A DNA stretch of 28,868 nucleotides from positions 1 through 28,868 of the IMG/VR virus record IMGVR_UViG_3300025368_000017; one strand, 5' to 3'. Shown here piece after piece: positions 4,249 to 25,761 of the stretch. The notes below the pieces were generated by a model. It worked only from the letters and a program-made list of their open reading frames with translations, ran no database searches and was not told the DNA's origin. The position numbers were made by a program, and so were the translations under genes. Every line of letters begins with the position of its first letter. Position 1 is the stretch's first letter. The stretch is from a virus. Taxonomy: Duplodnaviria > Caudoviricetes.

Positions 4249-6165
4249 ATGGCAAATATAGCAAGCCTGGGGGTCAAATTAGGATTAGATACTGCGACCT
4301 TTCAACAGGGCATTGCTGATGCTAAAAAGTATGTTGGCGAACTAAAAGATGCCCTTGTCGAAGTTGCTGGGGTTGCCGCTTTTGCCGAATTAACTAGAAA
4401 AGCATTGGAATATTCTGATTCCATTGTTAAAACCGCCAAAGCCAACGATGTGGCCGTGGCATCCGTATTATCCCTTTCCGATGCGTTAATGAAGAACGGT
4501 GGTAATGCCGAAGAAACCAGCCGTATTTATTCTGGCTTTACTCAAAAAATTGAATCAGCCATTTTAGGTAATGGCAAAGCCCAAGAATCATTTTCAAAAT
4601 TAGGGATTACCCTTAATGATTTAGCGCATTTATCCGAACAAGAATTATTTGATAAAACCATTCAAGGTTTATCACAAATGAAAGATTCTGCTGAACGCAA
4701 TGGTATTGCCTTTCAGACTTTGGGGCGTGGAATTAGGGGCGTAGATTTAAAAGGTTTGGCCGCAGATATGATGGCCAACCGTGAAGAAATGGACAAATAT
4801 GCCCAAGCGGTTACTCAAGCGCATGATTTAAGCATAAAAATGCAAGAAGCATCACACAAGCTGATGCTGGAATTTACCACCGCAGTATTGCCAGCTTTAA
4901 ATGCTCTATACGATTCATTAACTAAAGACAGTAGTGCATTAAACATTTTCTTTGGAATTCTTAAAGATTTTGCTACTGTTGGCGCAGTTTTATTTAAATA
5001 TACATCAACAGTTGTTCTTGGTTTTTTTACAGAATTAGAAGGTATTGCGGCCGCATCTGGCGATTTGATGAAAGGCAACCTTACTAAAGCTCTGGAAGAT
5101 ATTAAAGAATATGATGATAAAGTTAAAGCAATGGCCGAAAGTGATGAGTTATTTGCTCAAAGACTTTTAAACCCGCCCAAAGAAACAGCCAAACCACAAG
5201 TTCAAGAAGATGCAAATCGTCAGGTTATTGCCGCTAATCAAAAGCAAATTAGTGCGGCACAAGGGCTTACTCAGCAATATAAAGAACAAGCTGATTTAAC
5301 TTTAACTAAGTTAAAACAAGCCCAGCAAGAAGCTGAATTAACGACTAATCAAAAAGAATTAGAAAAGAACATTAATCAGGTGTTAAATGAACGCCAAAAG
5401 ATGCTGGATGATATTGATAAGAAAATATCAGCGGCTAGAAATACTATTGGCGGCCCAGCCCTCATTGAGCAATTGCAAAAGCAAAAAGCGGCTATTGAAG
5501 ATGCTTCACATTTTTATGTTGATGAAACCATTAAGGCTACATTAGCCACTCAAGAGCATCAGCGCAGTTTTAGTTATGGTTGGGAAAAAGCATATGCCCA
5601 GTATGTGCAAAACTCTGAAAATGCGGCACAACAAGCAGAACAAATGTTTGCATCAATTACCAATTCCATGACTAACGCCCTGGATCAATTTGTTCAAACT
5701 GGCAAATTAAACTTTGGCGATCTGGCAAAAAGCATTATTAACGATATGCTTAAAATTGAACTTCATGCACAAGAAATGAAGCTATTTGGCATGATTGGTG
5801 GCGCAATTAGTGGTGGCGGTGCATATGGCCCAACACCAGATGGCGGTAATATTGCTTCTGGCGGTATTGGTAGTTTGTTTGGTTTTGCGGATGGCGGTCA
5901 GCCACCCGTAGGCGTTCCATCCATTGTTGGCGAGAATGGCCCAGAATTGTTTGTCCCACAAACTGCTGGTACAGTTATTCCAAATAATAAACTTGCAGAT
6001 GCAATGGGTGGCAGTCAGCAACCAGCTACAGTTTATAATGGCCCATATATTGCCAGCATGTCTGCAATTGATACGCAATCTGCTACACAATTTTTGGCTA
6101 AGAATCAAAATGCTGTTTGGGGCGCATACCAAAACGCACAACGGGGCTTGCCACAAACAAGGTAA
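4249..6165 (+). CDS. Tail tape measure protein (lambda-like C-terminus)
   Basis: N-terminal MANIASLGVKLGLDTATFQQGI, helical Ala/Gln-rich body, GW..A..Y and FVQTGKLNFGDLAKSIINDM, then FADGG..IVGENGPELFVP. Confidence 0.93.
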   Translation: MANIASLGVKLGLDTATFQQGIADAKKYVGELKDALVEVAGVAAFAELTRKALEYSDSIVKTAKANDVAVASVLSLSDALMKNGGNAEETSRIYSGFTQKIESAILGNGKAQESFSKLGITLNDLAHLSEQELFDKTIQGLSQMKDSAERNGIAFQTLGRGIRGVDLKGLAADMMANREEMDKYAQAVTQAHDLSIKMQEASHKLMLEFTTAVLPALNALYDSLTKDSSALNIFFGILKDFATVGAVLFKYTSTVVLGFFTELEGIAAASGDLMKGNLTKALEDIKEYDDKVKAMAESDELFAQRLLNPPKETAKPQVQEDANRQVIAANQKQISAAQGLTQQYKEQADLTLTKLKQAQQEAELTTNQKELEKNINQVLNERQKMLDDIDKKISAARNTIGGPALIEQLQKQKAAIEDASHFYVDETIKATLATQEHQRSFSYGWEKAYAQYVQNSENAAQQAEQMFASITNSMTNALDQFVQTGKLNFGDLAKSIINDMLKIELHAQEMKLFGMIGGAISGGGAYGPTPDGGNIASGGIGSLFGFADGGQPPVGVPSIVGENGPELFVPQTAGTVIPNNKLADAMGGSQQPATVYNGPYIASMSAIDTQSATQFLAKNQNAVWGAYQNAQRGLPQTR

Positions 6166-7864: not shown

Positions 7865-10800
7865 ATGGGCGGTGGTGGCGGTGGTTTAATGGGTGGTATT
7901 ATCGGTGCGGCTCTAGCGGTTGTAGGGTTCGTTACTGGCCAGCCCGAATTAATTACTATGGGCATCACAATGATGGCTTCTTCCGTCATTTCTGCCCTTA
8001 CAGCACCAAAACAACCTGGCGAAAGCCCACAGCAAACCCAGTTAAATACTGGAACTAATTTACAAATTCAGCCAGGCACAAATAATAAATTGCCTGTAGT
8101 TTATGGTAATTGTTTTGTTGGTGGTACTGTTACTGATTTATCTATTACATCAGATAATCAAAATTTATATTATGTATTGTCATTGTGCGAAGTAACTGGT
8201 GGTGGCACAGATACTATTCAATATGGCAATATTTATTATGGTGGAAAACTTTGTTTATTTAGCGGATTAACTTACACGGATACTGGCGTTCATGTTGCAA
8301 CTATTTCTGGAAATAGCGTTACTTATACTGGCACACTATCTACATCAATTACTTCTGGATTATTAATTTCATTTGTTAATTCTGGAACGCCAATTTATTA
8401 CACAGTAAGCGGTATTAATACTGTTACAAAAACAATTATTTTTAATAAAGCAATTGATCCATCAGTAACGGTTGGCAATGAAATTTATAGTGTTGATCCT
8501 GGTCAAAGTTCAAGCACGGCTGTTACAGGATTGGTTGATCCCGCAACTGGTTTAGTAGACACAAAAGTAAATGGCTACATAAATATTTATTTATATAGCA
8601 ACGGATCAAATAGTTCAGTAAATAGTGGCCAATCGGCTATTAGCGTAATGCAAGCAAGCGGATTAAGTTATACATGGAATAACAGTAAATTAATGTCTAA
8701 TACGGCTTTTGCCATATTGCATTTAACTTATAACGCAAATGCTGGCGTTACAAATATTCAACAAACACAATTTGAAATTATTAATTCAAGATCCGCACCT
8801 GGCGATGTTATTTTTGATTATTTAACTAATACAGTTTATGGTGGTGCTGTACCAGTATCACAAATAGATACTGCCAGTCTTACGGCATTAAATACTTATT
8901 CTGCACAAACAATTACATTTAATAATTATCTTGGTGTGCCAGAAACACAACCTAGATTTACATTTAATGGTGCAATTGATACTACTAAAAATGTATTAAC
9001 CAATTTGCAAGATATGACCAATTGTTGTGATTGCTTGCTTACATTTAATCAAATATATGGTTTATGGTCGGTAATTACTCAAACGCCAACTTATACGGTG
9101 GCAATGGATATTAACGATTCTAATATGGTTTCTGCAATTGCCATTAGCACAATGGACATAAGCAATACCTATAACATTGCACAATGCCAATTTCCAGATA
9201 TTTCATTAAATAGTTCATTTAACACCAGCACAATTAATTTGGCTTTGGTTGATCCAGCTTTATTATATCCAAACGAACCAGCCAATAGTCAAACAATACA
9301 ATTGCCGTTGGTTAATAACGATGTGCAAGCACAATTATTGGCAACCAGATTTCTTAAAGCGGCCAGATTAGATTTGCAAGTTCAAGTAACTGTAAATTAT
9401 ATTGGCCTTGAATTAGAAGCTGGGGATGTTGTAACCATTACCAATGCTAATTATGGTTGGGTTGCAAAATTAATGCGGGTAATGAAGGTAGAACAAAACT
9501 TTTTATCAGACGGCACAATTTCTGTAAATTTACTTTTACAGGCTTATGATCCAGCAGTATTTAATGATGCAAGTATTACTCAATATACGCCAGGATCAAA
9601 TACTGGACTATCGGCACCAAATAGTTTTGGAACAATACCAGCCCCCGTTATTGTTGGTAATTTAACTTCTTTGCCAGTTCCCACGATTGGAATTCAAGTT
9701 ACTTCTAGTTCGGCTGGTATAGCTCAATATGCAGAGGTTTGGTATTCAGCCTATTCAAATCCAACACAAAGTCAAATGATTTTAGGGGGAACAACTGCGG
9801 TTCAATCTGGCGGAACGCCATATGGCAATAGCGTAGTAATGCCAACCGTATTTTTAACAGGAATTCCCGCTGGCAATTGGTATTTTTTTAGTCGAATGGT
9901 TAATAGTGTTGCTAAATCATTGTTTAGTTCAGCATCCAGCGTATTAGATTGGCGGCCAGCAACATTCCAATATTCACAGCGTTACTTATCTATTGCTTAT
10001 GCCACAAGTGCAACTGGCACAGGATTTACTTCAAATCCCAGAGGTGCTACTTATTATGGTATTTTAAATACTGCAACTCCAACATTTGACACAAACCCAT
10101 CTGATTACACATGGTATCAAGCAAATCCCGCATTTGGGTCATCTGGAACATTAAATTATTTGCTTTTTTGCAACCGTGGAAATAATTTAATTAGTTTTGG
10201 TGTTGGTAATGCGGCATTAAGTGGTGGCACGGCCTTATTTGTTCCAACAGATGTTAGCAATTATGATCCAACTATTTGGCAAGGACTGGAAGATGGTTAT
10301 AACATTATTGATCTTAATGCTAGAAGTGGGCAATTAATTCAAACTGGCACAACCACGGTTGGAACGGGTGAAATTGCCATTACCAATAACCCACAGGGTC
10401 AAGTTATTGCATCTTTGGCTCAATTATTAGATTTTGGTGGCCCACCAACCAAAACATCATCTGTAGCCACTTTGACAATTGACATTTATGGGCGTGTGGT
10501 CGGCTTTAGCCCGCCTGACAGCTTTTATTACACAATGACAGCTTTTGATGCTTCGGCTGGTCAAACTGTATTTAATGTTACTAGGGGAACGGAATATTTG
10601 TCTGGAAATTGTTGGGTATTAATTAATGGATGTTTATTAAATCCATCTGAATATACCGATACTAGCGGATCAACTGGAACTGTAACTTTAGCTACAGGCG
10701 CAGTTATAAACGATATTGTTACTATTATTTCTTTTGCTTCTGTAGGCGGCTCTGGTACTTATAATAGTTTTAGTCGTAATTCGGCTACATTAAGCAATAC

Positions 10801-11203: not shown

Positions 11204-12204
11204 CACAGGCACTAAATTTAGCCAATTTTGCTAACAATTTAAATACTTCTGGTCAAACCAGTAATTCTGGTTTACAAAATTCTACAATTGGAATAACTGC
11301 TGGTACTGGGATTGCTGTTACAAATACATCTCCAGCATTAGGCGGAACAACTCAAATTAGCAATACTGGAGTTACATCAATTAATGGATCTTCTGGCGCA
11401 GTAACAATTCCAATACCTTATGGAATTAATTATGTTCTTATTGCTGGCGGTGGCGGTGGTGGTGCTAATTGGGGCGGTGGTGGCGGTGCTGGCGGATATG
11501 CGGCTGGAAATATTTTTCAATATACGGGAAATTATTTAGCAATTACTATTGGTGCTGGTGGTGCTGGCGCAAGCAATGGAACAACAAATTCTGGTATAGA
11601 TGGCGGTGCAAGCTCAATAAATACTTTAATTGTTTCTGGTGGCGGTGGCGGTGGTGCTAATAGCGGAACTATTAATGGTGATAGTGGCGGTTCTGGTGGT
11701 GGTGGTGCTGGCGGCAATTCTTATGGTTCTGGCGGATCTGGTATTTACGGACAAGGAAATGCTGGTGGTTCATCGACTGGAACTGGTAACATTGGTGCTG
11801 GTGGTGGTGGTGGTGCTGGCGGTGCTGGTGTAACGGCTAGTTCTAGTGCTGGCGGAAATGGTGGAAATGGATTATCTAGCTCAATTACTGGAACATCTGT
11901 AACACGGGCTGGTGGTGGTGGTGGCGGAACAAACGGAACTGGCGGTTCTGGCGGTTCAGGCGGTGGCGGAAATGGCAATGGAACGCCTAGTGCAAATGGT
12001 TCTTCTGCAACAGCACATACTGGCTCTGGTGGCGGTGGTGGTGCTACCGCCTATGGTGGTGGTGGGAATGGCGCATCTGGAACAGTTATATTATCAATGC
12101 CAACTTCTAATTTTTCTGGAACATATACTGGTAGCCCAACAATTTCAACAAGTGGGTCTAATACAATTTTAATTTTTAATTCATCAGGAAGTTATACAAC
12201 ATGA
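11200..12204 (+). CDS. Glycine-rich tail fibre / adhesin-like protein
   Basis: GVTSINGSSGAVTI fibre motif followed by a ~260-aa domain with many GGGG runs. Confidence 0.75.
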   Translation: MTQALNLANFANNLNTSGQTSNSGLQNSTIGITAGTGIAVTNTSPALGGTTQISNTGVTSINGSSGAVTIPIPYGINYVLIAGGGGGGANWGGGGGAGGYAAGNIFQYTGNYLAITIGAGGAGASNGTTNSGIDGGASSINTLIVSGGGGGGANSGTINGDSGGSGGGGAGGNSYGSGGSGIYGQGNAGGSSTGTGNIGAGGGGGAGGAGVTASSSAGGNGGNGLSSSITGTSVTRAGGGGGGTNGTGGSGGSGGGGNGNGTPSANGSSATAHTGSGGGGGATAYGGGGNGASGTVILSMPTSNFSGTYTGSPTISTSGSNTILIFNSSGSYTT

Positions 12205-13171: not shown

Positions 13172-16100
13172 ATGGCAAATATCAAGGTAGTGGCTGGCAA
13201 TAGCGCAACTAATGTAACTGCGGTTGAGAACACAGTAAATATTTCTGTTGTTAAAGAAAACACAGTTAATTTACAAGTAACCCCAACTCCTAATCAAATT
13301 ATCAGTATTGATAAAGGCCAGTTTGGGCCATCAGGTTTTTCTGGTTATTCTGGTTATAGTGGTTTTAGTGGCGCATCAGGTTTTGGCTATTCGGGTCAAT
13401 CGGGATATTCAGGATATTCTGGTTACAGCGGTTCTGGGATTAGTGGATATTCAGGCGCAACTGGCCCTCAAGGTTTGTCTGGCTTTAGCGGTATCAGCGG
13501 ATATTCAGGCGAAGTTGGCCAAAGCGGAATATCAGGCTATAGTGGTTTTTCTGGAACAAGCGGTTACTCAGGGAGTGGCACAAGTGGATATTCTGGGTTT
13601 AGTGGTACATCTGGATTTTCTGGATTTAGTGGATATTCGGGTTCTGGCGTTTCTGGCTATAGTGGGTTTAGCGGTATTAGCGGCTATAGCGGTGCTAGTG
13701 GTTTATCTGGTTTCTCTGGTTTTAGCGGAATAAGCGGTTATAGCGGATCAGGTGTAAGTGGCTATTCTGGTTTTAGTGGTTATAGTGGCCAGCAAGGCAC
13801 ATCCATTAATATCAAAGGTACTGTTGCTACGCCAGCCGATTTGCCAGCCGTAGGCAATTTACCAAACGATGCTTATATTGTTTCTTCAAATGGCGATCTT
13901 TATGTTTGGAATGGAACTGTTTGGAACAATGTAGGCCCTATTGTTGGCCCAACAGGACAAAGCGGTATTTCTGGCTTTAGTGGCTATTCAGGCATTTCTG
14001 GTTATAGCGGATATTCTGGCATTTCTGGATATTCTGGTTACTCAGGTATTTCTGGTTATAGCGGAAGCGGTGTAAGCGGTTATAGCGGGTTTTCTGGATA
14101 TTCTGGTAGTGGTGTATCGGGCTGGTCAGGATTTAGCGGTATAAGCGGTTTTAGTGGCTTTTCGGGCTATTCTGGAAGCGGTGTTTCTGGTTACTCAGGA
14201 TTTAGCGGAATATCAGGCTATTCTGGTGCAGTAGGTTTATCTGGCACATCAGGTTATTCTGGTTTTAGTGGCGCAGTTGGTCAATCTGGAATTAGTGGTT
14301 TTTCGGGACTGTCTGGCTACTCAGGAATTAGCGGATTTAGTGGCTATTCAGGAATTGATGGTCAGTCTGGTTACAGCGGATTTTCAGGTATCAGCGGATA
14401 TTCTGGACAAGATGGCCAATCTGGAACAAGTGGATATAGTGGCTATAGTGGATCAGGTGTATCTGGCTACAGCGGTTTTAGTGGCATAAGTGGCTATAGT
14501 GGATTTTCTGGTATATCTGGTTATTCAGGTATAGATGGTCAATCAGGATATTCTGGAATTAGTGGAGCATCAGGATTTAGCGGAATTTCTGGTTATAGCG
14601 GATATTCTGGTTCTGGAGTTTCTGGTTATAGCGGTTACAGCGGAGCATCTGGTATTAGTGGATATAGTGGCTCTGGTATAAGTGGATACAGCGGTTTTTC
14701 TGGCATTAGCGGTTATAGCGGAGCAGTAGGTCAATCCGGCACAAGCGGTTATTCAGGATTTAGCGGTATCAGCGGAACTAATGGTGCTTCTGGATTCTCA
14801 GGCATCAGCGGATATAGCGGATATTCTGGAAGCGGTGTATCAGGCTATAGTGGTTATTCTGGATCAGGGGTATCTGGTTATAGTGGGTATTCTGGCGCAC
14901 AAGGCACAAGCGGTTATAGTGGTTATTCAGGATACTCTGGTTCTGTTGGTGCTGGCGGTGTTCGTGGCTATTGGGGTTCATTTTGGGACACAACTAATCA
15001 AACTGCCGCAAACACTACATCTTCATATATTTTTAACATTAATCAAACTGATGCAAATAGCACAGGAATAAGTATTGTTTCTGGCAATAGAATTACTTTT
15101 GCTAATGCTGGTGTTTATACAATTCAATATTCTGTTCAATTTCAAAATACTTCTACTGGTTCTGGCAATGATAATTCTGACATTTGGTTTAAATTAAATG
15201 GAACAGATATTGCAGATAGCAATAGCATTTTTAATATTCCTAGATCACAAGGCGGCACAAATGGATATTTAATTGCTGTTACACCTTATACATTAAAAGT
15301 AAATGCTGGCGATTATGTTCAACTTGCTTGGGCAGTATCTACGACCGGTATTTCAGCAGTAACAACAGCGGCACAAACAAACCCAACTGTTCCAGAAACT
15401 CCTTCTGTAATTGTTTCTGCTACTCAAGTTTTCTATACTCAATCTGGCTATAGCGGAGCATCAGGCTATTCTGGATTTAGTGGTATTTCTGGATTTTCTG
15501 GTATTTCAGGCTATAGTGGCTCAGGAATTTCTGGTTATTCGGGTTACAGCGGTTCTGGCGTAAGTGGCTATAGTGGTTACTCTGGTGCTGTTGGTGCAAG
15601 TGGCCTTTCTGGTTATTCTGGATATAGTGGTGCAGTAGGCGCATCAGGCTTATCTGGATATAGCGGATTTTCTGGTATTTCGGGATTTAGCGGATCGGGT
15701 ATATCGGGTTATAGCGGTTATAGCGGTTCGGGAATAAGTGGCTATAGCGGTTATTCAGGTGCAGTTGGCCAATCAGGTTACAGCGGTTATTCTGGAATTT
15801 CTGGAACAAACGGCACGAATGGCGCATCAGGTATTAGTGGCTATAGTGGCTATTCTGGATCAGGAATTAGTGGATATAGCGGATTCTCGGGTATTTCTGG
15901 GTATTCTGGCTATAGCGGTTCTGGCATAAGCGGTTATAGCGGTTATTCTGGTGCTACTGGTGCAACTGGTGCAACTGGAACAAGCGGATATAGTGGTTAT
16001 AGCGGTGCTACAGGATCACAAGGCACATCAGGCTATAGTGGTTATAGCGGGGCAACTGGGCCAACAATATATCCTAGTGCTGGAATAGCAAATTCAACAG

Positions 16101-17071
16101 GATCTTCTTGGGGAACTTCTTATTCTTCATCTAATCCTTTACCAACATCAGTTGGCGGAACTGGGCAGACAACTTATTCAAATGGTCAAATTTTAATTGG
16201 CAACGGCTCTGGATTAACAAAAAATACTTTAACTGCTGGTGCTGGAATTAATATTTCAAACGGTTCTGGAACTATTACAATTTCATCCAGTTTATATGTA
16301 ATGACATATCTTGCTTCTGCTGGCGGTGGCGGTGGTGGATCAAACTGGGGTGGTGGTGGTGGTGCTGGCGGGTTTATTTCAAGTTCTCTTGCCGTATCTA
16401 CTGGACAACAAATATTATTTACTATTGGATCTGGCGGGGGCGGTTCTTCTGGAACTGGTAGTGGTAGCAATGGTTCAAATAGTGTTTTTAATGGCGTCAC
16501 TTTGCTGGGCGGTGGTGGTGGTGGTGCAAATAGTGGTGTTACGACTGGATCTTCTGGCGGTTCTGGTGGCGGTGCTGGTGGCGGTAATTCTTATGCTTAT
16601 GGTGGATCAGGAACAACTGGTCAAGGATTTGCTGGTGGCAACTCATTAGGAAGCGGAAATATTGGTGGTGGTGGCGGTGGCGGATCATCTGCAATTGGAT
16701 TTAATTCTGGTAATTCTACAGGCGGAAATGGCGGAACGGGTACAACAAGTTCAATTACTGGTTCATCAGTAGTATATGCTGGCGGTGGTGGTGGTGGCGG
16801 TTCTAGTGGAACAAGTAGCGGTTCAGGCGGTGGCGGAAATGGAAGCGGTAGTAGTGGTGGTTCTGGCTCTGCTGGAACAGCCAATACTGGTGGTGGCGGT
16901 GGTGGCGGTGGAACAAACAACGGGTCTGGTGCGGCTGGCGGATCTGGATTTGTTATTATTTCCGTTCCCACTTCAAGTTATTCTGGAACATATACTGGAA
17001 CTGCAACAGTAAGCACATCAGGATCTAATACAATTTTGAAATTTACAACATCAGGAAGTTATACAGCGTAA
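13172..17071 (+). CDS. Collagen-like Gly-X-Ser repeat fibre with an internal C1q/BclA-like domain and a C-terminal Gly-rich domain
   Basis: Three G-X-S blocks (about 13316-13798, 13934-14968 and 15443-16063). Jelly-roll-like segment RITFANAGVYTIQYSVQF..IWFKLNG..VNAGDYVQL. C-terminus is paralogous to 11200..12204. Confidence 0.85.
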   Translation: MANIKVVAGNSATNVTAVENTVNISVVKENTVNLQVTPTPNQIISIDKGQFGPSGFSGYSGYSGFSGASGFGYSGQSGYSGYSGYSGSGISGYSGATGPQGLSGFSGISGYSGEVGQSGISGYSGFSGTSGYSGSGTSGYSGFSGTSGFSGFSGYSGSGVSGYSGFSGISGYSGASGLSGFSGFSGISGYSGSGVSGYSGFSGYSGQQGTSINIKGTVATPADLPAVGNLPNDAYIVSSNGDLYVWNGTVWNNVGPIVGPTGQSGISGFSGYSGISGYSGYSGISGYSGYSGISGYSGSGVSGYSGFSGYSGSGVSGWSGFSGISGFSGFSGYSGSGVSGYSGFSGISGYSGAVGLSGTSGYSGFSGAVGQSGISGFSGLSGYSGISGFSGYSGIDGQSGYSGFSGISGYSGQDGQSGTSGYSGYSGSGVSGYSGFSGISGYSGFSGISGYSGIDGQSGYSGISGASGFSGISGYSGYSGSGVSGYSGYSGASGISGYSGSGISGYSGFSGISGYSGAVGQSGTSGYSGFSGISGTNGASGFSGISGYSGYSGSGVSGYSGYSGSGVSGYSGYSGAQGTSGYSGYSGYSGSVGAGGVRGYWGSFWDTTNQTAANTTSSYIFNINQTDANSTGISIVSGNRITFANAGVYTIQYSVQFQNTSTGSGNDNSDIWFKLNGTDIADSNSIFNIPRSQGGTNGYLIAVTPYTLKVNAGDYVQLAWAVSTTGISAVTTAAQTNPTVPETPSVIVSATQVFYTQSGYSGASGYSGFSGISGFSGISGYSGSGISGYSGYSGSGVSGYSGYSGAVGASGLSGYSGYSGAVGASGLSGYSGFSGISGFSGSGISGYSGYSGSGISGYSGYSGAVGQSGYSGYSGISGTNGTNGASGISGYSGYSGSGISGYSGFSGISGYSGYSGSGISGYSGYSGATGATGATGTSGYSGYSGATGSQGTSGYSGYSGATGPTIYPSAGIANSTGSSWGTSYSSSNPLPTSVGGTGQTTYSNGQILIGNGSGLTKNTLTAGAGINISNGSGTITISSSLYVMTYLASAGGGGGGSNWGGGGGAGGFISSSLAVSTGQQILFTIGSGGGGSSGTGSGSNGSNSVFNGVTLLGGGGGGANSGVTTGSSGGSGGGAGGGNSYAYGGSGTTGQGFAGGNSLGSGNIGGGGGGGSSAIGFNSGNSTGGNGGTGTTSSITGSSVVYAGGGGGGGSSGTSSGSGGGGNGSGSSGGSGSAGTANTGGGGGGGGTNNGSGAAGGSGFVIISVPTSSYSGTYTGTATVSTSGSNTILKFTTSGSYTA
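13316..16063 (+). repeat. Degenerate 9-nt coding repeat (Gly-[Y/F/I/V]-Ser)n in three blocks
   Basis: Tripeptide periodicity read directly, with heavily varied synonymous codons. Confidence 0.95.
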
Positions 17072-22870: not shown

Positions 22871-23638
22871 TTAAAGTTTGTTGCGAATCTTAAAAAACTG
22901 CAACAAATGGGTAAAGCAATCCCATGCGGAACTTAATTCTGCCTGGGGTATTTCTATAAGTTTAACCTGATTTGTTAGCGCATTTACATATATGATGGCG
23001 CAATCTGCATCGGGTATACCAAGACCATTGCGATAACTGGCCAATTGCATGGCGTGTTCAAATGTATGCTTAATATCGGTTAAATCTTTTTCGGTTGTTT
23101 TAACATCACAAACCGCACCAGGAAAGCCTGTTATATCATCAGCAACCGCTGATAAATCCACTTTGCCACCAAAGCCCAATGGCGAACCAAAACTGCGTTC
23201 AGAATTAAATTTAATGTTGCCAAAACGGGCTTTCAGGGCTTTATCTACTTCATGGCAATATGCTGGCACTTCTGGAAGATAAACGCCTTCCATAAACGAT
23301 TCTATGATGCCGTGGATGTATGTTCCCCGTTCAGCGGCCTGTTTCCCAGTTTCTCTGGAATCTTGCATTACACGGGTAAGCCAATCTGATTCAGATTCGT
23401 TTTCTTGTTTAGGCAAGGTTAAAGCGGCAAGTAATACATTTTGCTGTTTCCAGATTTCCAATCCTGGTTTAGCAATTTGACTAATTACCGTTGTGGTGGA
23501 AACAAGTAGGCCCATTTCCCTGGCATCACGAACCGTAGTATTGCGTTCTTTGCCGTTTTTTCCAATTATGCGATAGGCTGGCGTTCCATCGATCTGATAC
23601 CAATGGCCAGATTCCGCATCATGCGTTTTTACTAGCAT
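22871..23638 (-). CDS. PD-(D/E)XK exonuclease (lambda exo / Cas4-like recombination nuclease)
   Basis: AAERGTYIHGIIE..SE..GFGGKVDL..CDVKT..MQLASY. Shares an operon with ERF and SSB. Confidence 0.85.
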   Translation of the reverse strand: MLVKTHDAESGHWYQIDGTPAYRIIGKNGKERNTTVRDAREMGLLVSTTTVISQIAKPGLEIWKQQNVLLAALTLPKQENESESDWLTRVMQDSRETGKQAAERGTYIHGIIESFMEGVYLPEVPAYCHEVDKALKARFGNIKFNSERSFGSPLGFGGKVDLSAVADDITGFPGAVCDVKTTEKDLTDIKHTFEHAMQLASYRNGLGIPDADCAIIYVNALTNQVKLIEIPQAELSSAWDCFTHLLQFFKIRNKL

Positions 23639-23656
23639 CTTTCCCCCGAATTAAAA

Positions 23657-23857
23657 TTAAGATTGCATTGAAAGTATTTCGTTACGCAAGATTGGATCGC
23701 TAACACGATCCGCACAAGCGGATATAGCCGTGTTAATGACGCTAATCAATCCTTCTCTTGTCATGGCAATGAGTTGTTTTTCCTCATCAACGCCATATTC
23801 ATAGTTAAACTTAACTTCAGTTTGCTGGTTAATTACATCATTAATTTGGCTAATCAT
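23657..23857 (-). CDS. Hypothetical protein
   Basis: 66-aa ORF with RBS AGGGGA between the SSB and exonuclease genes. Confidence 0.7.
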   Translation of the reverse strand: MISQINDVINQQTEVKFNYEYGVDEEKQLIAMTREGLISVINTAISACADRVSDPILRNEILSMQS

Positions 23858-23868
23858 TTTGTCCCCTT

Positions 23869-24126
23869 TCAGAACGGTAAATCGTCATCCACTATTGATG
23901 GTTTTGGTAGTTCATCACTACCAGCTTCTTTAAAGCCAATTGGTTGCTTTACTTCGCCAACTGATACCGAAATAAATTTACCCTTTTGGCCCTCTTTCAC
24001 CCAAGCTGAAAGCCAATGTTCATGGCCGTTCAACTTGATTGAACCCGTGTAATCTGGCGATGTGTCTTTAGTCTTTTTCAAATTCTTAAACAAATTGCCG
24101 TTATTTTCTTTTAATTCAAAAGCCAT
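23869..24126 (-). CDS. Short single-stranded DNA-binding-like protein
   Basis: [20 protein letters not shown]-like core and an acidic DDDLPF tail. Adjacent to ERF. Confidence 0.75.
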
Positions 24127-24136
24127 GTTTTATCCT

Positions 24137-24586
24137 TTATTCAATTTCGTTAATCGTAATGCGTTTGTTTGCAACTGGAACAGATGCGGCATTACCATCG
24201 TCATCTGATCCATCAGCGTATATAGCAAGCACCGCTGAAAGTGCATACCTTCTCATGTAAGTTAAACATGAACCCGCACCCTGGGGATCGGCTTTAGTTA
24301 AAGGCATTGACATAGATTGCTTGATCCATTCGCCAGAACTATGACTAAGAACCGTTGTCAATGTCATGTGCATGAGTTCATTATCCGCAAAGCATTGGCC
24401 AGGGAATTGCATAATTGCAAGTTCGTGTTCTGCCAATAAACTGCGGCAACTATCCAGCACAGAGCCAAGATCGGCATAGGTACTTTTAAAAAACGGATTT
24501 TTACTATCTTTTTTAGCATGAGTAAGTTTCCCCTGAACTTTTGATAACGCTAATGCCAGTTGGCCAATGTTTTCACTTTGATCCAT
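24137..24586 (-). CDS. erf: ERF-family single-strand annealing recombinase
   Basis: KDSKNPFFKSTYADL..LSHSSGEWI..PQGAGSCLTYMRRYAL..DDDGN. Start revised to ATG 24586 behind RBS GGGGGA. Confidence 0.92.
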   Translation of the reverse strand: MDQSENIGQLALALSKVQGKLTHAKKDSKNPFFKSTYADLGSVLDSCRSLLAEHELAIMQFPGQCFADNELMHMTLTTVLSHSSGEWIKQSMSMPLTKADPQGAGSCLTYMRRYALSAVLAIYADGSDDDGNAASVPVANKRITINEIE

Positions 24587-24761
24587 TATTTCCCCCGAAA
24601 ATAGTTGCAAAATCTTCAAAGATGTTGTGAAGCGCAGATTCCGCCTTATGCGATCTAGGTTTTCCGCAAGCGTGTCTGATGATCTCAATATCTTCACTCG
24701 TTAGACAATCAAACTCCATGTTTGTCAATGCTTCTTCCAGCTTTTGTTCAAATTCATCCAT
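24573..24761 (-). CDS. Hypothetical protein, first gene of the leftward operon (62 aa, MDEFEQKLEEAL...)
   Basis: ATG 24761 with RBS AGGGGG. The longer track ORF runs through the promoter region. Confidence 0.7.
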   Translation of the reverse strand: MDEFEQKLEEALTNMEFDCLTSEDIEIIRHACGKPRSHKAESALHNIFEDFATIFGGNNGSK

Positions 24762-24790
24762 ATGACCCCCTTTGTTTAATGGATAATAAT

Positions 24791-24840
24791 ATATTAAACT
24801 ATTTCTAATACTTGTGCAATTATTTTTTATGGTATATTTT
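24791..24840. promoter_or_regulatory. Overlapping divergent sigma70-type promoters
   Basis: Leftward TTGCAC (24819-24814)-17 nt-TAATAT. Rightward extended -10 TGgTATATT (24830-24838) with TTGTGC upstream. AT-rich and at the strand switch. Confidence 0.6.
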
Positions 24841-24842
24841 AG

Positions 24843-25076
24843 GCGTGGTAGGTTTTGACTGGCGGCTCTAACGACATCGTAGCGGTCAAAATACAAGCGT
24901 TACTAGAGGGAAGATGCTGAAATAGCGCAATAACGGTGGCGAAGCTAGTGCCGTTGCATCGAATGACTGGCGAGGGATGCGATTCCGCAATGGATAACAT
25001 TTAAAGGCAAATCTAGGTAGGCTAGGTTTGCTCAAACCGCTTGGAAGGTGTTTTAATCCTAGTAACTTACTACTGC
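24843..25076 (+). ncRNA. Candidate multi-stem structured ncRNA (~230 nt)
   Basis: Nested helices: 24845-51/25067-73, 24853-61/24883-91, 24899-906/25059-66, 24932-38/24949-55, 24956-60/24976-80 and 25007-16/25022-31. Begins right after the rightward promoter. No credible ORF. Confidence 0.65.
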
Positions 25077-25089
25077 TATAGGAATAAAT

Positions 25090-25272
25090 ATGACAAGAGA
25101 AGAAATGCTGGTTGATCTACTAAGCAAAGCCGAAGAAGAAATTAAACTTCTTAAAAAACAAACCGATTTTTTGCGTAAAGAAATTGCCGCTAATCGTCAA
25201 TTGACCAATATGCTTGCTGGCCAAGTATTTAAAACCAATAAAAATGAAAATACAAATAACTACCCTTTTTGA
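25090..25272 (+). CDS. Small coiled-coil hypothetical protein
   Basis: RBS AGGA. First ORF after the structured RNA. Confidence 0.7.
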   Translation: MTREEMLVDLLSKAEEEIKLLKKQTDFLRKEIAANRQLTNMLAGQVFKTNKNENTNNYPF

Positions 25273-25528
25273 AAACCCCGATGGGTCAGCCGACATCATG
25301 GTAGATTATGATGATGATGGGTTAAAAATGTTGATTCAATATGGAATCACCGCAATCGTGAAGGAAGCAATTGAATGTTCGAGGAATTCTGGGTCAGTTA
25401 TCCAAAAAAAGTCGGGAAAGCGGATGCAAGAAAAGCGTTTAGCAAGCTCACAGAAGAACAAAAAAGTGCCGCAATTAGCGCCATTGAAACGCACAAGCAA
25501 TTCTGGAAAATCAAGCAAACAGAAATAG
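25244..25528 (+). CDS. Hypothetical protein (MKIQITTLFENPDGSAD...)
   Basis: Plausible N-terminal ~45 aa. The 3' part overlaps the replication gene by 154 nt. Confidence 0.55.
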   Translation: MKIQITTLFENPDGSADIMVDYDDDGLKMLIQYGITAIVKEAIECSRNSGSVIQKKSGKRMQEKRLASSQKNKKVPQLAPLKRTSNSGKSSKQK

Positions 25529-25761
25529 ATTACATTCCCTATCCAGCAACTTGGTTGCGTGGTGAACGATGGGAAGATGAACTTGATTTACAACCTAAGC
25601 AAATAAAAAAGCCCGAATTACCCTGGTATTCGACAGATGAACTAACTTTGAAAAAAGGCGAAGAACTTGGACTTAGACCGCAAATCGGTGAAACCTTTGG
25701 GCAATTCAGACAACGAATATCGGGTGCAATGCACCGTCAGGCAACTAATAATTTGGCGTAG
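25375..25761 (+). CDS. Phage replication protein, C-terminal-domain-only
   Basis: FEEFWVSYPKKVGKADARKAF..YIPYPATWLRGERWEDE is the conserved C-terminal module of lambdoid replication initiators. RBS AAGGA. Confidence 0.72.
   Translation: MFEEFWVSYPKKVGKADARKAFSKLTEEQKSAAISAIETHKQFWKIKQTEIDYIPYPATWLRGERWEDELDLQPKQIKKPELPWYSTDELTLKKGEELGLRPQIGETFGQFRQRISGAMHRQATNNLA

Follow-up and report, generated by a model that had tools for sequence, protein, structure and literature searches.

What fills the interval at positions 24843-25076, with a leftward ERF/SSB/exonuclease operon on one side and a rightward FWxxYP operon on the other, and what could it do for the phage? The interval belongs to a stretch of 28,868 nucleotides from a virus of the Caudoviricetes (IMG/VR record IMGVR_UViG_3300025368_000017), the whole of which we call the window. 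The preliminary description interpreted it as a large structured RNA of no recognised family in the position of the lambdoid cI/cro switch. Our analysis identifies the element as a member of a catalogued RNA family, for which a corrected length and a pseudoknot map are new. We suggest that this RNA, here termed class A, acts in cis and may open or prime the phage origin much as RNA II does in ColE1, a reading by analogy to which we give an even chance. Elsewhere in the window, positions 13172-17071 encode a protein of 1299 aa that contains long SGYSG/SGFSG repeats and is probably a tail fibre.

Family membership and extent

Positions 24852-24975 match the Rfam family RF02932 (Betaproteobacteria-1) over model positions 1-120 of 120 with 95.1 bits, compared with a gathering cut-off of 49.4, and this strong match removes the novelty of the family. 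Rfam types RF02932 as Gene; sRNA, and the model output gives neither function nor context. The family presumably stems from a survey of 224 motifs (PMC5737381). Literature searches found no paper on it; the main text of the survey does not mention Betaproteobacteria-1, and the supplement, outside the coverage of our searches, may describe the context of the motif.

Homologues were collected by four pattern scans of viral contigs, which gave 291 profile hits, 269 of them with full flanks and reduced to 117 non-redundant sequences; a later metagenome scan raised the set to 168 non-redundant sequences, of which 123 have flanks of 260 nt. Conservation by column among the 117 homologues spans approximately 24852 to 25047. 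Structured RNA is thus present in the interval 24843-25076 first assigned to it, but the conserved element covers only this shorter part (Table 1). The element is about 72-75 nt longer than the Rfam entry and totals about 195 nt; in contrast to the Betaproteobacteria-1 model, the window element has an additional ~72 nt with the covarying hairpins P4 and P5 and a repeated word. Motifs of this 3' domain occur in 110 of 119 distinct members found by patterns of the 5' half, as opposed to 1 of 547 control windows, with a mild bias toward the 3' motifs since the 119 members had also passed the full-length profile.

A pattern scan of genomes was too loose, with real loci making up 7 of 120. A model search of one order found the element in 2 of 151 genomes, one of them the search centre, and a search of plasmids returned no match to it. 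One 1.9-Mb genome (G001, locus L491) has two RF02932 matches on different contigs.

Table 1. Coordinates of the features discussed, in window positions unless a locus or accession is given
Feature	Position	Strand	Remarks
Leftward recombination operon	22871..24764	-	small ORF, ERF, SSB-like protein, small ORF, exonuclease
Predicted extended -10-like promoter element (TGn-TATATT)	24830..24838	+	read by eye
Full conserved element, class A	24852..25047 (3' end approximate)	+	Rfam 5' domain (124 nt) and uncatalogued 3' domain of ~72 nt
P1 hairpin	24852..24892	+	24852-61 with 24883-92; pairs 24856/24888 and 24857/24887 covary
Pseudoknot 1	TAG 24880-82 with CTA 24903-05	+	100% of cells paired, 75/75 homologues
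P2	24897..24928	+	24897-901 with 24924-28; loop holds the 5' strand of pseudoknot 2; covariation
Pseudoknot 2	24914-17 with 24956-59	+	GATGC/GCATC
UGNRA T-loop-like word	24918-22	+	in the P2 loop
Crossed helices	24933-36/24951-54 and 24944-49/24966-71, within 24933..24971	+	around invariant GGCGAAG 24938-44
P4 hairpin	24976..25001	+	beyond the Rfam model; pairs 24976/25001 and 24977/25000 covary; 95% of cells paired
Repeat copy X	24985-24994	+	in the P4 loop
P5 hairpin	25006..25032	+	GCAAATCTAG/CTAGGTTTGC; conserved GGCT in and beside the loop
Repeat copy X'	25037..25045	+	after the last helix; weak in the window, strong in most homologues
A+T-rich tail with ribosome-binding site	25048..25089	+	3' strands of both outer helices at 25061-25076
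60-aa ORF	25090..25272	+	no family
128-aa stand-alone FWxxYP protein	25375..25761	+	C-terminal part of phage replication initiators, N-terminal domain missing
Class B	L611:4462-4720, L591:2155-2410, L557:4370-4630, L636:740-1030; MW202674 ~5135-5405		same slot, also in primase-type phages
Class C (candidate)	L550:3355-3560, L570, L588, L614:4795-5000, L615		~200 nt, five sequences; conserved, same slot

Fold and repeated word of the class A RNA

Comparison with shuffled controls speaks for a structured RNA on the + strand, which folds with a free-energy z-score of -1.97 (6 of 200 shuffles equally good), compared with 0.69 for the - strand. The z-scores of 40 homologues are weak (mean -0.86), as is expected because of the pseudoknots. 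Covariation among homologues exceeds the tree-based null: 16 column pairs lie above the maximum of 40 simulations. A structure of nine helices with three pseudoknots pairs 82.7% of the cells in 75 sequences, compared with 67.1% in the shuffled control, and shows two-sided changes in 38 of its 46 pairs, although the slide control is biased toward this structure, which was drawn from the window and from Rfam, and the alignment of P1 is poor. For the 3' domain alone the values are 85.3% and 73.1%, with two-sided changes in 10 of 14 pairs.

The three helices of the Rfam model are kept, and pairs in P1, P2 and P3 exceed the tree-based null; paired cells amount to 92% in P2 and 99% in P3, and to 50% in P1, which MAFFT aligned poorly. 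The crossed helices are paired in 98-99% of cells with many two-sided changes, while part of the invariance around 24933..24971 is imposed by the search patterns. The word UGNRA, which we take to be the T-loop consensus, is conserved as U in 108, G in 113, any base, a purine in 117 and A in 108 of 117 sequences. The invariant GCGAAGC, presumably the sequence of a DNA mini-hairpin, was considered as such and rejected, because the final base changes along with P3.

All six stem pairs named in the preliminary description are present in the window. Compensatory changes support four of them, namely TTTTGACTG/CGGTCAAAA, AACGGTG/TGCCGTT, GATGC (24914-17)/GCATC (24956-59) and GCAAATCTAG/CTAGGTTTGC, but the two outer ones are specific to the window. 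Nor are the helices nested as described there, for GATGC/GCATC and AACGG/CCGT cross Rfam helices as pseudoknots, and the conserved GCATC has the upstream GATGC as its partner, not the downstream copy of the single-sequence fold. Both outer helices, GTGGTAG/TTACTAC and GTTACTAG/CTAGTAAC, draw on bases beyond the conserved part, and their pairing is not conserved: in 123 homologues the corresponding segments reach -5.14 and -5.75 kcal/mol, compared with -4.94 and -5.30 kcal/mol for shuffled partners, where a positive control gives -8.65 as opposed to -6.2 kcal/mol. In all 75 homologues the CTAG at 24903-05 pairs with TAG (24880-82) instead of forming an outer helix. Run X1 yielded four short contigs, which are uninformative about transcription; one contig of low depth from this run, possibly in error, deviates from the window at four positions in 25073-25079, three of which (25073, 25075, 25076) fall in the GTGGTAG/TTACTAC helix.

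The loop word X of P4 recurs right after P5 as X'; both are lineage-specific and change in step. The longest word common to the two copies averages 6.7 nt and reaches at least 6 nt in 71 of 94 sequences (117 less 5 unparsed, 5 mis-parsed and 13 without anchor), compared with 3.7 nt for shuffled partners and 4.2 nt for the nearest relative. In 33 metagenome members the mean is 6.8 nt, compared with 3.7 nt when shuffled, and the first base after GT agrees between both repeat units in 93 of 108. The copies in the window have CCGC and TGGA in common. An antisense target was rejected for X, no complementary copy above control being found within 500 nt, and phased iterons were rejected for the pair, whose spacing is unimodal over 43-85 nt and lacks helical phasing. 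Since this spacing varies by single bases, no credible reading frame runs through the element, in agreement with the earlier statement that it holds no credible ORF.

Among 75 homologues, the helices that aligned better contain 117 G-U cells and 17 A-C cells, which identifies the + strand as the folded one. The covariation bears out a structured non-coding RNA. We nevertheless have to consider that the fold might act as single-stranded DNA. It would then form on the displaced + strand, serve as an origin or load the primase, and offer X and X' as a pair of sites for protein binding. The context evidence would be the same as for an RNA at the origin, upstream terminators would be irrelevant, and RNA and ssDNA motifs are hard to distinguish computationally according to the accessible part of PMC5737381. 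The UGNRA word with its free third and purine-only fourth position, the three pseudoknots and the many G-U pairs suit RNA better, however, and the repeat spacing shows no helical phasing, so that we regard a DNA element as quite improbable. Cleavage or joining of the early transcript at X and X' by a ribozyme or processing element would likewise suit a compact core with several pseudoknots and invariant unpaired bases, and two like sites that flank P5. This we hold to be highly improbable, as there is no Rfam ribozyme among 5 matches at E up to 10 and three unrelated folds fill the same slot (see below).

Neighbouring genes, half initiators and an exchangeable slot

Across 88 loci, the replication genes within about 3 kb of the element include those for a helicase (32), an FWxxYP protein (21) or a primase (19); other common neighbours are ParB-like (24) and Ref-like (23) genes, and no neighbouring gene family is common to all 88. 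Primase genes lie upstream of the element in 18 of 19 cases, at a median of 106 nt from the anchor; the neighbouring primases are 271-312 aa long, and in most cases no more than about 50 nt separate the end of the gene from the RNA. In further loci a gene for a T7-like primase-helicase, a Prim-Pol or a RecE-like protein lies downstream. Strict coupling to primase was rejected, the element being absent from 43 primase-type records in a count that had no positive control.

There is one element per record, invariably in the orientation of the operon, and in many cases it directly precedes NinB, NinG, RusA or Ref genes or comes after cro. Among 49 related loci that have an element and at least 1.5 kb of upstream DNA, a cro-like gene is present upstream in 47, the window and L552 being the two exceptions, and Acidovorax phage AP1 (OM049504, element at about 11853-12060; recorded host from rice leaf) has the order Xre repressor, ParB-like gene, helicase, primase, element. 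This contradicts the view that the RNA replaces the cI/cro switch, as most of these phages retain cro and AP1 has a repressor in addition to the element.

Transcription in the window is predicted to start at about 24845, just 5' of the RNA, from the promoter-like element at 24830..24838. The consensus promoter scan needs a spacer of 16-18 nt, and this element is absent from its list; -10 words are not enriched in 123 homologues (20, compared with 32 in the control). The same homologues have a 3' terminator in only 5 cases and a terminator-like hairpin directly upstream in 46. Start codons follow at 17 to more than 250 nt from the element, and the downstream genes are varied. A riboswitch or translational leader was rejected for the variable start distance, the rarity of terminators and the inconsistent downstream gene.

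A long terminator-like hairpin at L611:4326-4470 has 21 similar counterparts and is absent from the window. Internal loops of this leader hairpin are complementary to upstream words, and both change in step between phages; we take the leader to resemble a C4/CI-type antisense immunity element or an attenuator. The leftward operon contains a second common non-coding sequence in several loci (L539:925-1194, L594:720-1019, L567:4087-4348, L615:1134-1315).

The put RNA of HK022 and the EAR of Bacillus are cis-acting antiterminator RNAs, and the element resembles them as a structured RNA in cis within an early operon. A processive antiterminator, whose nascent fold would bind RNA polymerase and read through terminators into nin-like and late genes, would fit a single copy per record on the operon strand near cro or the NinB, NinG, RusA and Ref genes, as well as the lack of a 3' terminator of its own. 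We consider it unlikely, since in the 46 cases the element stands just after and not before the terminator-like hairpin, the leftward operon of the window has no second copy, and neither the link to initiators without an N-terminal half nor the X/X' repeat is predicted. In contrast to put and EAR, the phage element is larger, present in single copy, often behind a terminator-like hairpin and without Rfam match to them. A search for Q-type antiterminators found them in 0 of 50 records, phage controls included among the zeros.

Where the element precedes a short FWxxYP gene, it does so by 0.2-2.7 kb. In PHROG 270, a replication initiation protein with 383 positions, the FWxxYP protein of the window aligns with positions 179-266. 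Each of the 72 distinct FWxxYP frames beside the element has at most 65 residues before the domain and lacks the N-terminal half, compared with more than 130 residues in full-length initiators; the query was built from neighbours of the element and favours short forms. The predicted fold (pLDDT 89) gave no Foldseek match at E 0.001 (best VIA Z 5.5) and no PDB or Pfam profile match, and kinship to DnaT or DnaD was dropped as unsupported by fold and profile searches. Origin-binding initiators were searched as two families, HTH_36 and DUF1376, which pass the cut-off in control phages but in none of the 41 records that carry the element; five HTH_36 matches below cut-off occur among the 41, and Pfam misses one control initiator (L521). 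Long initiators of the O type are found in PfAn1, L521 and L523; the full-length DUF1376-FWxxYP gene of PfAn1 (L839, 5492-6230) is unannotated in its record.

A split protein initiator is conceivable, because Rhizobium phage RHph_N3_2 combines a stand-alone FWxxYP gene with a separate HTH gene and lacks the element. In this phage (L837, 198-910 and 5983-6321) the HTH gene is followed by an A+T-rich gap with repeats and the FWxxYP gene lies 5 kb downstream, so that the initiator is apparently split into two genes. A further gap of 690 nt (8943-9636) has no annotation.

Relatives fetched by FWxxYP alignment often lack class A and have another non-coding element in its slot. At 54 stand-alone FWxxYP loci with at least 2.7 kb upstream, which are related and partly redundant, we find A in 20, B in 26, C in 5 and none in 3, but never two; one of the three empty loci later gave a weak B match. 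Class B is an uncatalogued element of about 260 nt with several helices, in which 16 of 25 predicted pairs covary (34 non-redundant members) and no covarying direct repeat is found; the GenBank phage MW202674, with a stand-alone FWxxYP gene, carries it. Rfam searches with classes B and C returned nothing credible. Searches of whole records detected B in none of 25 A-carriers, whereas 6 of 9 near-complete genomes of the primase type without A contain it; C was missing from all 19 A-carriers searched, with the positive control recovered. A single leader shares one junction with different elements: A follows it in 13 rows, B in 6 and C in 1, and of two further rows that are unclassified one is a B locus. 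None of the three classes occurs in eight loci with full-length initiators (three distinct proteins, four loci with enough flank), nor in the 12-kb loci of four GenBank phages with long initiators.

Exclusivity of one element per record follows from any allelic slot and names no function; B and C are new structured-RNA candidates regardless of which function holds. Further unclassified non-coding elements occupy the slot in L586 (from 1737) and, after the primase stop, in L536, L621 and L625; the latter three have two G-runs, and L621 weakly matches the 5' part of B.

The occupied slot also bears on a processed trans-acting scaffold or decoy, for which X and X' would be twin sites of a phage or host protein that differs between lineages, perhaps to counter host defence. 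A covarying repeat without complement would fit protein binding, Rfam types the family as sRNA, and some loci have no replication genes nearby. We judge this decidedly unlikely, as in 118 of 123 homologues there is no terminator that would set the 3' end, the loci as a whole share no neighbouring gene family, and a decoy that the phage could do without should not fill 51 of 54 slots.

A possible RNA at the replication origin

Among the functions listed in the preliminary description (regulator, antiterminator, ribozyme, replication primer), the primer fits best and a riboswitch-like regulator poorly. An origin is the simplest reading because the element lies in cis, once per record, is near-universal with half initiators and absent from the few phages with whole ones. 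Its RNA-type motifs and sense orientation suggest that it works as a transcript, and copies X and X' without complement are as expected if an RNA loop pairs with the template at the downstream copy.

From the observed fold, position, repeat, exchange of elements and missing N-terminal half, we infer the steps toward replication, with confidence evenly balanced for and against. Transcription from the rightward promoter would pass through the element, and once folded the RNA would present X in the loop of P4. This word may then base-pair with the template strand where its twin X' closely follows the last hairpin, and so seed a persistent RNA-DNA hybrid into the purine-skewed, A+T-rich tail, where G+C drops to 0.35 and the G skew is 0.32 in 123 homologues. 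The opened strand would be loaded by the stand-alone FWxxYP protein in this phage, or by helicase and primase in others, and the terminator-like leader, where present, might gate initiation.

This scheme has a counterpart in ColE1, where an upstream RNA loop pairs with the template near the origin. According to the accessible part of PMC5043065, RNA II opens and primes the ColE1 origin without a plasmid-encoded initiator. By analogy, the class A element would be a folded non-coding transcript of a replicon that may encode no initiator to bind its origin, and a persistent hybrid is proposed for it. In priming of the ColE1 type, RNase H cuts such a hybrid and Pol I extends it; for the phage element, the composition of the tail and the X/X' repeat bear on this step. 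By contrast, it has about 195 nt rather than 550 nt, is pseudoknotted, occurs in phages beside a helicase, a primase or a truncated initiator, and its hybrid is only proposed; ColE1 has an antisense RNA I that covers the primer's 5' end, whereas none is known for the phage element (promoter scan only). The plasmid motifs ARRPOF, GEBRO and PAGEV are described in the accessible part of PMC5737381 as structured motifs of a few hundred nt in replication regions, acting as RNA or ssDNA, with ARRPOF inside a region sufficient for rep-independent replication. They differ from the phage element in their plasmid setting, and it has no Rfam match to them.

Initiators of the lambdoid O type carry an internal origin. 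The element shares with them the slot between cro and nin-like genes and the same FWxxYP C-terminal domain, but the N-terminal domain and linker are gone here, and the RNA element and A+T-rich tail lie upstream instead. A further idea is that phages replaced the DNA-binding half of the initiator by interchangeable RNA origins, with at least three unrelated pseudoknotted RNAs, two of them uncatalogued, in one slot behind cro or primase, and that class A opens the DNA after its loop word, by matching its own second copy, has located the template. We offer this scenario, which would concern widespread betaproteobacterial and freshwater phages, tentatively and at somewhat below an even chance.

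Several observations count against an origin. Transcription would have to pass the terminator-like hairpins that lie upstream in 46 of 123 homologues, the window has a weak repeat and class B none, and all three classes are absent from four near-complete genomes (G015, G027, G047, G053). At some loci the nearest 3 kb hold no replication gene, and in L285 the element precedes a small terminase gene. Small HTH or winged-helix genes likewise lie near some elements, for example about 270 nt after the RNA in L538.

The orphan family RF02932 gains a corrected length, a pseudoknot map and a cultured host system in Acidovorax phage AP1. If the origin reading is true, phages would use modular RNA-opened origins like that of ColE1, which would explain the replication of many small aquatic phages that possess half an initiator.
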